Shown in pieces: positions 19,370 to 62,692 of a stretch of 64,000 nt of DNA (position 1 is its first letter; each line of letters opens with the position of its first letter). Made by a program: the position numbers and the translations under genes. Source of the DNA: Escherichia phage UGJNEcP3; the sequence record OV876907. One strand, 5' to 3'. Under the pieces are notes generated by a model that saw only the letters and a program-made list of their open reading frames with translations, was not told where the DNA came from and did not search any database.

Positions 19370-19408
19370 GTGTAGTTGATAGGAAGATAGTAACACCATC
19401 CATGGCGT
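19370..19408 (-). promoter_or_regulatory. early promoter
   Basis: GTTTAC(19400-19405), 18 bp, gTGtTACTAT, CTTCCTATCAACTAC box. Confidence 0.55.
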
Positions 19409-27506: not shown

Positions 27507-28058
27507 TTATGCAAAATGAATATCAGCATACTCAACAATAAAACTTTCAGGAACTACTTTAAAGGTGCCAAGGAACACGATGTTATACAGCTTAACACCT
27601 TCTTCAACCCATTGGTCTGTGATATAACCGGACATGCTGGTAGTTTCGTAAGTGGGGCCATACTTGCAATTGTATTCAAACGGTTTAGGTGAAACGAAAA
27701 AGACACCTTTACCTAATTTCCATTTAAAATCAACACCAACATGAGATCGGTCAATAGTTTCAACGTCTTGAGCTACTACGCCACGGATATCATTGCTTTC
27801 ACATACATACCCATCATGGGATTCAACTTCTTCAACTACAGGAGCGATGTATCCGGTAAATTCAGTAGATTCCAAGAATTTAGCACGCACATATCCGAAT
27901 TGAGTTTCGGTCTGGCCATTTTTAGGAATAATACGCACTTTAACTTCTTTAATTCCACCTACTAAATTGGTACGAATACCTGCAACTTCAACTAAACTGC
28001 CCGCAGCTTTTGAACGAGACTTTTTGGATACACGAACAATTTCACCGATAGTAATCAT
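27507..28058 (-). CDS. hypothetical protein, paralog A of a tandem pair
   Basis: 183 aa; C-terminal block ITDQWVEEGVKLYNIVFLGTFKVVPESF shared with next ORF. Confidence 0.65.
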   Translation of the reverse strand: MITIGEIVRVSKKSRSKAAGSLVEVAGIRTNLVGGIKEVKVRIIPKNGQTETQFGYVRAKFLESTEFTGYIAPVVEEVESHDGYVCESNDIRGVVAQDVETIDRSHVGVDFKWKLGKGVFFVSPKPFEYNCKYGPTYETTSMSGYITDQWVEEGVKLYNIVFLGTFKVVPESFIVEYADIHFA

Positions 28059-28100: not shown

Positions 28101-28129
28101 ATTATAACATGGCTCTCGATAAAGTAAAC
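28101..28129 (-). promoter_or_regulatory. early promoter
   Basis: GTTTAC(28124-28129), 17 bp, caTGtTATAAT. Confidence 0.5.
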
Positions 28130-29186: not shown

Positions 29187-29207
29187 TTTGTTCTCCTCAT
29201 GTTGATA

Positions 29208-29245
29208 GGGTAGATAATATCATGTCATGAGGAGAAGTAAACACT
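29208..29245 (-). promoter_or_regulatory. early promoter
   Basis: GTTTAC(29237-29242), 17 bp, caTGaTATTAT, CTACCCTATCAAC box. Confidence 0.55.
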
Positions 29246-32528: not shown

Positions 32529-32563
32529 GGTATTTTTCTCATCTTACGGACGATTAGTTGATA

Positions 32564-32601
32564 GGTTCTATAGTATCATGTTGCTTGGTAAAGTAAACAC
32601 T
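32564..32601 (-). promoter_or_regulatory. early promoter
   Basis: GTTTAC(32593-32598), 17 bp, caTGaTACTAT, AGAACCTATCAACTAA box. Confidence 0.55.
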
Positions 32602-32667
32602 TTTTTGCTTTAAATTTTCGACGGTATAATGAATCAAGGACTTTGCCTTTCAATTAAACCGGGTGGT

Positions 32668-33282
32668 TCAGTAAGAAAGAACGGAAAGATTCCAAATGGT
32701 GTAATTATTCCATTTAGGATTTCTCTCAATAGAGTCTACGCGCAGCGTAGTTCCCGCAGGGAACATCATCTCATCTTCATCATTAATTAATTGTAAGTTT
32801 GCTACACGTGTAGATTCAGGAAATGCGCCTGGGAACTCTTCAGGGGGCGCAGCACATAACATTTTAAAGATTTCTTCCTGATAATTGTACACAAATGGTG
32901 CATCATTAATACAAAAGATATTAAATGTGCCGTAGAAGTTATAAGATGCGAAATTCCTTGCCACGTTGAAGTCTTTAGAGAAGCTCATCACGCGGTCGAA
33001 TTCAATTACCGCACCTACACACATTGTGGACTCTAGATACCTCATAGTCTTTTTAGATATGCCGCGATAGAGCTTATCAGGCACTACAGAAGTCAGGTTC
33101 TTACGAATAATTTTGTTCAGAGTTTCCTGGATAGAATCAGGTTTATTTTCCATACACTGCCAGAGCGTGCTCTGTTCTAAATCAGAATACACCTCATCAA
33201 TTTCTATCTGAGTATTCTCACGGAAATCATCGCATTTGACATTGTTGATAAATTCTGCTAATTTATAGCTTGGATATAACAT
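32668..33282 (-). CDS. Mod-type mono-ADP-ribosyltransferase (ModA/ModB family)
   Basis: 204 aa; R-S-E-type motifs: YRG, SFS, E-x-E-like EDEMMFPAG; tandem with a paralog. Confidence 0.75.
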   Translation of the reverse strand: MLYPSYKLAEFINNVKCDDFRENTQIEIDEVYSDLEQSTLWQCMENKPDSIQETLNKIIRKNLTSVVPDKLYRGISKKTMRYLESTMCVGAVIEFDRVMSFSKDFNVARNFASYNFYGTFNIFCINDAPFVYNYQEEIFKMLCAAPPEEFPGAFPESTRVANLQLINDEDEMMFPAGTTLRVDSIERNPKWNNYTIWNLSVLSY

Positions 33283-33299
33283 ATTATTCTCCTCAGTTG

Positions 33300-33340
33300 A
33301 TAGAAAGATAGTACCACAAGCCTCCTTGCCTGTAAACTAA
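33300..33340 (-). promoter_or_regulatory. early promoter
   Basis: GTTTAC(33332-33337), 18 bp, gTGgTACTAT, CTTTCTATCAACTGAGGAG. Confidence 0.5.
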
Positions 33341-33906
33341 AAATCCAACATTTTTAAATGAATTATTTTGTACTCGATTTCGTATGGATCCCTTTTGACG
33401 GTTTCGATTGCAACAATCTCAAATCGCGATAGACTAGAGACCATGAACTCGCATTCAGTTTCAACCATATCATAGAGGTCGATACGAGATTCATCTATTT
33501 CAAGCTCATCCACATTCCCTGCAAGAACAAGGTCGATAGCATGATTGTAGTAGTCGAAAATGAACGGTGCATTCCTGAGACTTAAAATGGTTTTGGTTCC
33601 ATACTCCCATGCCCCTGCGAACTGACGAGCCTGAGAGTATTGTGTACTAAAAGAAGTAACTCGACCAGGAGACCATTGACACCCTACTGAAAGGAGCTCT
33701 AATTGCTCAAGTTCTCTGGGGGTAATCCCGCGATACAACTCTACTGGAACCGCTGAAGTAACATGCTTGCGAACCAGTTTGTCGAGGTCGTAATGGAAGT
33801 TAGGGTCCTTTTTAGCGTCCAGACATTTTTCTAAAAGATTCTGTTCGTGTTTTGAGAATTTGGAATTGATTCGGTCTTGATAAAGACATTTTTGTTCGAT
33901 GTTCAT
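33337..33906 (-). CDS. Mod-type mono-ADP-ribosyltransferase (ModA/ModB family), paralog
   Basis: 189 aa; YRG, TSFS, ECEFMV motifs. Confidence 0.75.
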   Translation of the reverse strand: MNIEQKCLYQDRINSKFSKHEQNLLEKCLDAKKDPNFHYDLDKLVRKHVTSAVPVELYRGITPRELEQLELLSVGCQWSPGRVTSFSTQYSQARQFAGAWEYGTKTILSLRNAPFIFDYYNHAIDLVLAGNVDELEIDESRIDLYDMVETECEFMVSSLSRFEIVAIETVKRDPYEIEYKIIHLKMLDF

Positions 33907-33930
33907 ATGACCTCCAGTGATTTAGAGGTC

Positions 33931-33959
33931 ATTATAACATGAAGGGAGGAGGTGTAAAC
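33931..33959 (-). promoter_or_regulatory. early promoter
   Basis: GTTTAC(33954-33959), 17 bp, caTGtTATAAT, GACCTCTAAATCA. Confidence 0.55.
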
Positions 33960-34213
33960 TACTTAAACACACCAAGTGGGGCGCCAAACACTGCAATGTC
34001 AGCAGCCATGCCTAATGAGGATTGGGTATATGAAGTATAGGAGCTTTTTGATTCATAAGAGCTTTTTGTTTCTGGCTTCTCGGCTTCAATCTTAGGAGCT
34101 TTCGCCTGAATATTTTTTTGCTCGATTTCCTTACGAGCCTGTTTACGGTCGATATCCAACGCCGATGTAGGTATATTAGTCAGCCAATTCATTATTTTAC
34201 CCAAGGAGCCCAA
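33959..34213 (-). CDS. hypothetical protein (84 aa)
   Basis: early-strand ORF; hydrophobic C-terminus. Confidence 0.5.
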   Translation of the reverse strand: MGSLGKIMNWLTNIPTSALDIDRKQARKEIEQKNIQAKAPKIEAEKPETKSSYESKSSYTSYTQSSLGMAADIAVFGAPLGVFK

Positions 34214-40302: not shown

Positions 40303-40323
40303 TTGAATCTCCTCGTTAGTTGA

Positions 40324-40363
40324 TAGGTCTATAGTATCACTACCATAGACCGTTGTAAACACT
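40324..40363 (-). promoter_or_regulatory. early promoter for sp
   Basis: GTTTAC(40355-40360), 18 bp, gTGaTACTAT, AGACCTATCAACTAACGAGGAG. Confidence 0.55.
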
Positions 40364-41337: not shown

Positions 41338-41342
41338 GTTGA

Positions 41343-41381
41343 TAGGTCTATAGTATCATGCCTATAGGAGATGTAAACCCT
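41343..41381 (-). promoter_or_regulatory. early promoter
   Basis: GTTTAC(41373-41378), 17 bp, caTGaTACTAT, AGACCTATCAACTTGGAG. Confidence 0.55.
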
Positions 41382-62096: not shown

Positions 62097-62422
62097 TTAG
62101 CTGCCTTAACAATTTTCAGGTCAACGAATTTTTTCTTACGTTGATTCTTCATACGACGGATGGTTTTGTCTGTGATTTCACCTGGCTGCCAAGCTTTAGA
62201 TTCGACACCAAAGGCGGCCACATCAAACTCGTCGAGAATATATTGAACCAGGATTTCACGAATACCGTTCTTACCAATTTTTTGGTCTTTAGAGTGCATG
62301 ATTGGTAACAGTTCAGCAACCCATTGGTCAAGAACCTGAGGAGTTACAAAGCCAGTTTTCATCAGTTCATTAACTTTATCGAAAGCGAAAGAGTTCAGTA
62401 CGTTTTTAATAGCTTGTGACAT
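62093..62422 (-). CDS. hypothetical protein (109 aa)
   Basis: 55.x-type early ORF; basic C-terminus. Confidence 0.55.
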   Translation of the reverse strand: MSQAIKNVLNSFAFDKVNELMKTGFVTPQVLDQWVAELLPIMHSKDQKIGKNGIREILVQYILDEFDVAAFGVESKAWQPGEITDKTIRRMKNQRKKKFVDLKIVKAAK

Positions 62423-62491
62423 AATAATTTCCTCAGTTTAAAAATTTATAATCCGTAGGACCATTATACTCTGGTCCCAAGAGTTTGTAAA

Positions 62492-62692
62492 CTATTTTTG
62501 TGCTAATGCACCTTTCCAACCTTCATACATCATTGCGGCTGATATTAATATTGCTCCTGCGCATTTTGAATATTTGTTATTCCAAAACCAGTTTAGAAAA
62601 ACTTCGTCATCAATACCTTGAGCTATCATATTTTCAAAGAACTGACGACGGGCTTCAGCAATTCGTTGTGATAATTTAGATTCAGGATTCAT
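62492..62692 (-). CDS. hypothetical protein (66 aa)
   Basis: early ORF; hydrophobic C-terminal segment. Confidence 0.5.
   Translation of the reverse strand: MNPESKLSQRIAEARRQFFENMIAQGIDDEVFLNWFWNNKYSKCAGAILISAAMMYEGWKGALAQK

Follow-up and report, generated by a model that had tools for sequence, protein, structure and literature searches.

The closest described relatives of the locus considered here, a pair of Mod-type ADP-ribosyltransferase genes of Escherichia phage UGJNEcP3, are the neighbouring genes modB and modA of bacteriophage T4. T4 ModB (NP_049636, 207 amino acids (aa)) modifies S1, L2, EF-Tu and trigger factor by ADP-ribosylation and by RNAylation, and T4 ModA (NP_049635, 200 aa) ADP-ribosylates Arg265 on both alpha subunits of RNA polymerase. 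The T4 modA gene overlaps modB by 4 nucleotides (nt; ATGA) and has no promoter of its own. A second point of comparison, relevant to the leader of one of the genes, is provided by T4 e and I-TevI, in which a hairpin sequestering the ribosome-binding site (RBS) carries a proximal, late promoter in its 5' strand (PMC3014915); because the 5' strand holds this promoter, only the promoter-proximal transcripts should be translated.

The pair in UGJNEcP3 lies within a 64,000-nt stretch of sequence record OV876907, which was analysed as a whole and is referred to below as the window. A preliminary description, made from the sequence alone, had proposed two paralogous proteins of about 200 aa at 32668-33906, and two open reading frames (ORFs) of 189 and 204 aa are found at exactly these positions. 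They are separated by a spacer of 54 nt, and their products are 31% identical over 184 aa (BLASTP, E 3e-26):

33337-33906, minus strand: upstream Mod gene, an ORF of 189 aa for a predicted ModB-type arginine ADP-ribosyltransferase
32668-33282, minus strand: downstream Mod gene, an ORF of 204 aa in the modA slot, for a predicted arginine ADP-ribosyltransferase

The best overall explanation of our results, to which we assign a probability of roughly 80%, is that the locus encodes two competent, arginine-specific mono-ADP-ribosyltransferases of the T4 Mod family that are expressed early, and that expression of the upstream one is gated.

The genes themselves have been seen before. A 3.7-kb stretch spanning the locus is 100% identical at the DNA level to Escherichia phage UGJNEcP4, where both genes carry the annotation 'RNA polymerase ADP-ribosylase', and 92-95% identical to the JS98-like phages WG01, KIT01, JS98 and IME08 (93% for JS98 itself, the Dhakavirus type). 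In JS98 the upstream gene is annotated as modB (ABX11043) and the downstream gene as modA (ABX11042); the amino acid identity to these proteins is 98% for the downstream product (4 of 204 residues differ) and 93% for the upstream product (13 of 189). Since they bear these names in JS98, the Mod pair of this phage consists of known, already annotated genes, and as annotated genes of a sequenced phage they offer nothing new by themselves. What the analysis adds is a caution about ModA orthology, an internal promoter that is specific to certain lineages, and a conserved leader hairpin.

Membership in the Mod family, as the preliminary description had it, is indicated by three lines of evidence that agree with one another. 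Both proteins match the PHROG 832 profile 'RNA polymerase ADP-ribosylase' (E 2.7e-44 for the downstream and 3.7e-37 for the upstream protein), over the same region of the profile that is matched by T4 ModA and ModB; PF26816 is precomputed on all of 24 database homologues; and the gene order is syntenic with modA.3 - modA.2 - modB - modA - srd - dda.1 - dda of T4. The neighbours that define this synteny were identified by Pfam in the case of the Mrh-like/modA.3 and Y01A (dda.1) genes, and by PHROG and annotation in the case of Srd and the Dda-like helicase. The slot in the early region, between modA.2/mrh and srd-dda.1-dda, is found in the same order in 11 genera.

The R, S-x-S and E-x-E motifs that had been noticed by eye are present in both proteins, in the same order: Y72-R73-G74, M-S100-F-S102 and E169-D-E171 in the downstream protein, and Y58-R59-G60, T-S85-F-S87 and E151-C-E153 in the upstream one. 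When aligned with T4 ModA and ModB, the motifs fall in register, and the Arg, the Gly, the first Ser and both Glu residues are invariant, as they also are across 17 proteins from 11 phage genera and across 26 database homologues; the third position of S-x-S is at least 90% conserved. Two of these positions are known from T4 mutants to matter for activity. The R73A/G74A mutant of T4 ModB loses both ADP-ribosylation and RNAylation (PMC10468400), and R73 of the downstream protein and R59 of the upstream protein align to this R73. The E165A mutant of T4 ModA is inactive (PMC11404850), and the second Glu of E-x-E in both proteins aligns to this residue. With the Arg and the pair of glutamates retained in both paralogues, the loss of catalytic glutamates that would speak against the family assignment is not seen. 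The observation behind the preliminary description is confirmed, and its interpretation is supported.

Structure prediction leads to the same family. The AlphaFold2 models have a predicted local distance difference test (pLDDT) score of 91.4 for the downstream and 87.0 for the upstream protein, and they place the presumed Arg for binding of nicotinamide adenine dinucleotide (NAD) in a strand (residues 70-74 and 56-60, respectively), the S-x-S motif in the next strand (99-102 and 84-87), and E-x-E at the start of a strand following a helix in both cases. Searching the PDB with Foldseek returned 103 matches for the downstream and 112 for the upstream model at E <= 1e-3. Among the best 50 matches per model all are R-S-E ADP-ribosyltransferases (probability 1.00, best E about 1e-6), and the relatives listed comprise C3, Certhrax, HopU1, iota Ia, CDTa, ExoS/T and Tre1. 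The upstream model is matched to Certhrax and C3 at E 1e-6, and the downstream model to C3, HopU1 and Certhrax. The fold and the arrangement of R, S-x-S and E-x-E are thus shared with C3bot (2c89), Certhrax (4fk7), iota Ia (4h0x) and HopU1 (3u0j), although the identity between these C3-like or binary toxins and the Mods is 10-18% and the template modelling (TM) score only 0.4-0.57. They also differ in setting, the former being host-directed toxins of bacteria, whereas the Mods are early proteins of a phage and act on its bacterial host.

Taken with the models, the sequence comparisons indicate that both proteins are very probably active arginine-specific ADP-ribosyltransferases. Within the R-S-E clade, the first Glu of E-x-E confers specificity for arginine and the second is catalytic. 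By homology, each Mod would bind NAD+ through the Arg of strand beta-1 and the S-x-S of beta-2, and the second Glu would catalyse the transfer of ADP-ribose to arginines of host proteins within the first minutes of infection. The upstream enzyme would be expected to act on the translation apparatus (S1, EF-Tu, trigger factor), with NAD-capped RNA as a possible donor, and the most likely target of the downstream enzyme would be RNA polymerase alpha.

How far such targets can be carried over depends on which paralogue is which, a question that the preliminary description held could not be decided by eye. For the upstream protein an assignment is possible. It scores 85.1 bits against T4 ModB (34% identity) and 26.2 bits against T4 ModA, and hhalign gives 126 to ModB and 68 to ModA. 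Because both measures favour ModB, and because the two genes have a leader hairpin in common (see below), the upstream protein is by these comparisons clearly ModB-type. The likeness extends to its place as the first of the pair, downstream of modA.2, to the R-S-ExE motifs in register, and to an early promoter and a hairpin pairing the -10 region with the Shine-Dalgarno sequence, which are alike in the two genes. There are differences as well: the N-terminus is 18 aa shorter than that of T4 ModB, the insertion YTYEDTDG, which in T4 precedes the ADP-ribosylating turn-turn (ARTT) region, is missing, and E-x-E reads ECE in place of EQE. In trees, the upstream protein clusters with single-copy Mods (88% bootstrap with PEi26, 74% with S16/Gravdalen), and its placement beside T4 ModB is not robust.

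The downstream protein remained ambiguous by bit scores, hhalign and trees alike. Like T4 ModA it occupies the slot between modB and srd, with R-S-ExE in register and 39% identity over 166 aa, and it obtains 86.7 bits against T4 ModA, compared to 89.0 bits (33% identity) against T4 ModB. By hhalign, the downstream protein scores 150 with the T4 ModA group, 171 with the ModB group and 391 with the single-copy Mods of S16, PEi26, Gravdalen and Pet-CM3-4; the upstream protein scores 339 with these single-copy Mods. Judged by these scores, both paralogues are much closer to the single-copy Mods of other genera than to either T4 protein. In neighbour-joining trees the downstream genes of Dhakavirus, Gaprivervirus and Mosigvirus form a clade with 100% support, and this clade joins T4 ModA with a bootstrap of 40% in a set of 17 sequences and 28% in a set of 47 that includes 50%-identity cluster representatives.

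These figures leave room for a different origin of the downstream gene, as an independent duplicate of a ModB-like single-copy gene in the ancestor of Dhakavirus, Mosigvirus and Gaprivervirus rather than an orthologue of T4 ModA, in which case its targets may differ from RNA polymerase alpha. We regard this as a genuine possibility and as the best surviving of the alternatives, while giving it less credence than a ModA relationship. It draws on the order of the hhalign and BLAST scores, on the low bootstraps of the T4 ModA grouping, and on the N-terminal half of the protein, which is slightly nearer ModB (33% and 41% identity, versus 28% and 38% to ModA). The C-terminal half, including the region before ExE, tells the opposite, with 41% and 34% identity to ModA versus 24% and 26% to ModB; the best neighbour-joining topology joins the downstream protein to T4 ModA and protein P0042 in both samplings; the gene sits in the same slot as modA; the best structural matches include a Tequatrovirus ModA; and the two paralogues of the window are never exclusive sisters (0 of 500 bootstraps). 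In BFVD, the downstream model reaches a TM score of 0.85 both to the single-copy 'modB' of Serratia phage CBH8 and to the Tequatrovirus 'modA' of Shigella phage Sf22. On balance, the downstream protein is probably best described as the occupant of the modA slot, a slowly evolving relative of ModA. Strict ModA orthology, and hence RNA polymerase alpha as its target, is not established, and since orthology is weakly supported the target specificity cannot be transferred with confidence.

Two other histories were considered and set aside. A recent, lineage-specific duplication giving rise to the two paralogues is ruled out by the 0 of 500 bootstraps in which they are exclusive sisters. A chimeric downstream gene, with a ModB-like N-terminus and a ModA-like C-terminus, is not supported, the differences between segments being modest and the trees from split alignments giving no resolution.

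The names ModA and ModB have spread across the Tevenvirinae by position. Since both Dhakavirus paralogues are nearer to the single-copy Mods, the target assignments made in T4, whether RNA polymerase alpha or S1/EF-Tu and RNAylation, need testing outside T4.

We now turn to the expression of the upstream gene, the leader of which contains the following two elements.

33931-33959, minus strand: early promoter of the upstream gene; GTTTAC, 17 nt ending in TGT (TGn-extended), TATAAT
33899-33940, minus strand: leader hairpin, from RNA folding and covariation

The 5' arm of the hairpin (33932-33923) consists of the last two bases of the -10 hexamer and the 8 nt that follow, and the Shine-Dalgarno sequence UGGAGGUCAU, which immediately precedes the AUG at 33906, forms the 3' arm (33916-33907). 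Pairing of 33940-33936 with 33903-33899 adds an outer helix that encloses the AUG. A 51-nt segment spanning the gene start folds with a minimum free energy of -17.6 kcal/mol (z -4.56), and none of 200 shuffled sequences is as stable. Equivalent hairpins were found in each of 12 leaders folded, with z between -3.7 and -8.5; these were the leaders of this phage, of T4 modB, of the upstream genes of SP18 and Mosigvirus, of two IMG/VR lineages and of six phages with a single Mod gene (S16, KPV15, Pet-CM3-4, PEi26, Gravdalen and phiR1-RT). In every leader the -10 hexamer, or its 3' part, sits in the 5' arm, and the Shine-Dalgarno sequence, whether alone or together with the AUG, invariably makes up the 3' arm, even though the sequences of the arms differ between lineages. 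In an alignment of 19 leaders a core of 13 bp is 85% paired, compared to 33-51% in slid controls, and 8 of the 13 core pairs have compensatory changes (for instance AU:8/GC:8 and AU:7/GC:7), a level of covariation reached in 0 of 500 shuffles. We did not retain the outer helix as part of the conserved structure, as its register is not kept across genera and pairing drops to 71% when it is included, versus 85% for the core alone.

The structure is not a general property of the leaders at this locus: the downstream gene has a leader with unusually little structure (z +1.7), and the one before srd is neutral (z -0.8). Among the 14 early promoters identified in the window (see below), the design is present at the promoter of the upstream gene (z -6.6) and in weaker form at three others. 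These weaker pairings of a -10 region with a Shine-Dalgarno sequence were noted at 2379-2407 (ATG at 2347, an RNase H-like gene; z -4.1), 28101-28129 (ATG at 28058; z -3.2) and 62463-62492 (ATG at 62422; z -2.1), and with three further cases the design may be a recurrent class of early leaders. Rfam has no family in the window or the locus, either at the gathering score or at E <= 1.

No terminator is found between the preceding 84-aa ORF and the promoter of the upstream Mod gene. In a read-through RNA, the -10 region would fold onto the Shine-Dalgarno sequence and the helix would close over the AUG of the upstream gene. Because sigma70 promoters initiate some 7 nt beyond the -10 hexamer, the predicted +1 of the gene's own promoter falls at about 33924; a transcript beginning there would lack the 5' arm and should be open to translation. 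No such gate would apply to the downstream gene, whose leader is unstructured. By analogy with the T4 leaders, we infer that the hairpin acts as a translational gate. In T4 e, I-TevI, soc and 49, the Shine-Dalgarno sequence and the AUG are likewise held in a helix that contains the proximal promoter (PMC3014915). The difference is that in e and I-TevI the embedded promoter is late, and it is early translation that is blocked, whereas in the upstream Mod leader the promoter is early, and translation would consequently be limited to an immediate-early pulse. The conserved hairpin thus offers a testable explanation for how production of a toxic enzyme could be kept brief. That review does not list modB among its RBS-sequestering cases, and our literature searches found no description of a modB leader hairpin.

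One could also speculate that the hairpin is an element for RNA processing or stability, serving as an RNase III site or protecting the 3' end of the upstream message, instead of gating translation. A perfect stem of 10-19 bp suffices for RNase III, and the hairpin is located at the 3' end of the upstream transcription unit. We nevertheless consider this unlikely as a replacement for the gate, given that the 3' arm is always the Shine-Dalgarno sequence whatever the arm sequence, that no U-tract follows the hairpin, and that the T4 precedents of like geometry, e and I-TevI, act on translation. Roles in processing and in translation are moreover not exclusive of each other.

The preliminary description had further assigned an early promoter to each of the two genes, and a strict consensus is indeed found before both, which at the level of sequence bears this out. 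The pattern GTTTAC N16-18 TAYWAT has 14 matches in the window, all on the minus, that is the coding, strand, where 0.29 are expected; none of 100 shuffles reached this count, and the enrichment is far beyond chance. Besides the promoter of the upstream gene, two of these matches belong to the locus:

33308-33337, minus strand: internal early promoter of the downstream gene; GTTTAC, 18 nt with TGG, TACTAT
32570-32598, minus strand: srd early promoter, matching the strict pattern and bounding the locus downstream

Both Mod promoters overlap the preceding ORF by one base, the final G of its TAG stop serving also as the first G of GTTTAC; this preceding ORF is the 84-aa ORF for the upstream promoter and the upstream Mod gene for the internal one. 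Equivalents of the upstream promoter precede T4 modB, the upstream Mods of SP18 and Mosigvirus, and the single gene of S16. The distribution of the internal promoter is narrower. Its hexamers are kept while the spacer varies in JS98 and in six Dhakavirus-type IMG/VR loci, it takes the form GTGTAC..TACTAT / TATTAT in Mosigvirus, and it is absent at the Mod loci of SP18 and T4. Unlike T4 modA, the downstream gene is thus set off by a 54-nt spacer that holds a complete early promoter, and it has a Shine-Dalgarno sequence (GAGGAG) of its own. On the evidence of the sequences compared, the internal promoter is a real difference from T4, and it implies that the coupling of the two enzymes varies between lineages. 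Each Mod gene would thereby have its own sigma70-type T4 early promoter, an arrangement that is observed as sequence and presumed in function.

The TGn-extended TACTAT of the internal promoter is followed by the octamer CTATCAAC, which is also found just downstream of several other early promoters. It occurs 14 times in the window, compared to 1.8 expected, and 11 of the occurrences are on the coding strand; examples on the minus strand are 33296-33303, 32557-32564, 29201-29208, 40319-40326, 41338-41345 and 19375-19382. Six copies lie 4-6 nt downstream of the -10 hexamer of strict early promoters, which points to a conserved initial-transcribed motif of the early promoters of this phage.

It could be argued that the internal promoter-like sequence is unused, and that, as in T4, a single transcript from the upstream promoter covers both genes. 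The sequence matches the generic sigma70 consensus at 9 of 12 positions and has an 18-nt spacer, and SP18 and T4 manage without it. We find this quite improbable in view of the exact phage-specific -35 element GTTTAC, the TGn-extended TACTAT, which is common to five other strict matches in the window, the octamer shared with other early promoters, and the conservation of the hexamers around a variable spacer in six Dhakavirus loci and Mosigvirus.

Within the spacer of the internal promoter, just past the upstream stop, there is a small hairpin (33314-33335, minus strand; ACAGGC / GCTTGT with the loop AAGGAG), which might attenuate read-through into the downstream gene. In a VR5-like locus (L015) the stem differs but stays complementary (ACGAG / CTCGT). 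As a terminator-like part of the mechanism this hairpin was not adopted, being weak and only partly conserved.

Returning to the overall reading of two competent, early-expressed Arg-specific enzymes with a gate on the upstream one, a number of points weigh against it. The proteins share no more than 32-35% of their residues with the T4 enzymes that have been characterised. A local scan of Pfam-A, using a set that does not contain PF26816, gave no significant family (DRAT at E 0.083, below the cut-off), and a sequence search of the PDB returned noise only (chitinase, nucleophosmin) and no solved Mod structure. The downstream protein has a higher hhalign score to the ModB group, and a much higher one to the single-copy Mods, than to T4 ModA, with which its clade is joined at the low bootstraps given above. 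The dependence of the hairpin on the promoter presupposes a +1 that is taken from the usual sigma70 spacing, and activity, targets and timing in this phage are all inferred. A scan of NCBIfam gave nothing significant. That one of the paralogues might be a catalytically dead decoy or pseudoenzyme is scarcely credible: nothing speaks for it directly, apart from the paralogues being only 31% identical and the middle residue of ExE being D or C versus Q in T4, and it conflicts with the invariance of R, G, S and both E in all homologues, with the confident ADP-ribosyltransferase (ART) folds of both models, and with strong purifying selection on both genes (ratio of nonsynonymous to synonymous substitution rates, dN/dS, 0.05-0.11 overall; 0.05-0.11 for the upstream and 0.095 for the downstream gene).

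A further element lies at the downstream end of the pair and points in the opposite direction.

32606-32630, plus strand: MotA-box middle-promoter consensus; TGCTTTA, 12 nt, TATAAT, with a perfect box

It is located between srd and the downstream Mod gene and is directed antisense into the 3' end of the latter. Of 18 matches in the window it is the only good one on the plus strand, and T4, JS98, Mosigvirus, Gravdalen, phiR1-RT and several IMG/VR lineages have it at the corresponding position. The element has no entry in the table of T4 middle promoters that have been mapped, and our literature searches found neither a description of an antisense modA promoter nor a genome-wide map of T4 start sites. 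Going by its sequence, this putative MotA promoter might make an antisense RNA. A 'nearby MotA-dependent promoter' has been invoked for oriA (PMC3016281), and one might speculate that the element is this oriA-linked promoter.

Combining these features, we considered whether the pair forms a wired regulatory module, a proposal that in its entirety, with all four parts holding jointly, must be regarded as doubtful. First, synthesis of the ModB-type enzyme may be confined to an immediate-early pulse, because only RNA from its own promoter escapes the hairpin between the -10 region and the Shine-Dalgarno sequence, and this hairpin is conserved, with compensatory changes, in at least 11 Tevenvirinae genera, whichever Mod allele occupies the slot. 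Second, the second enzyme of Dhakavirus and Mosigvirus may have been uncoupled by gaining its own promoter and an unstructured leader. Third, the conserved MotA-dependent promoter may fire antisense into the second gene at middle times, and the resulting transcript could silence this gene or prime replication (oriA). Fourth, the second enzyme may not have the RNA polymerase alpha target of T4 ModA.

The upstream slot also differs between relatives in the Mod that it contains. In SP18 (L003 1896-2456) and three IMG/VR loci (L031-L033), it holds a different Mod lineage, which is about 30% identical, and SP18-type Gapriverviruses combine this different upstream lineage with the lack of an internal promoter. 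The VR5-like locus (L015 1501-2067) has a Dhakavirus-type upstream Mod at 95% identity. In sequence terms the upstream Mod slot is an exchangeable cassette. Compared with JS98, the synonymous divergence (dS) of the upstream gene is 0.35, four times that of the downstream gene (0.086), a difference that points to mosaic exchange.

Among the minor features of the locus, a block in the srd leader (32529-32560, minus strand; L002 3287-3320) has the form CGTCCGTAAGA(T/C)(G/A)..GA(A/G)AAAATAT. It is near-identical in T4, JS98, SP18 and Mosigvirus, while its flanks are divergent, and no stable structure is predicted for it.

The 84-aa ORF between modA.2 and the upstream Mod gene (33959-34213, minus strand; likely start Met8 at 34192) matches PHROG 14077 (E 1.7e-40) and has a hydrophobic C-terminus. 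T4 has no gene at this position, modA.2 abutting modB, and JS98 leaves the ORF unannotated. Its TAG stop overlaps the -35 element of the upstream Mod promoter.

Beyond the phages compared above, the family is small: in 1.84 billion cluster representatives its profile matched only 102 clusters at E <= 1e-3 and 41 at the stricter E <= 1e-10. The strongest matches to the Mod profile are about 160-230 aa long, and the weaker ones are ART domains within very large proteins. P0048, P0061, P0062, P0064 and others carry such ART domains in metagenome proteins of about 1,000-4,300 aa, which are presumably polyvalent or toxin proteins.

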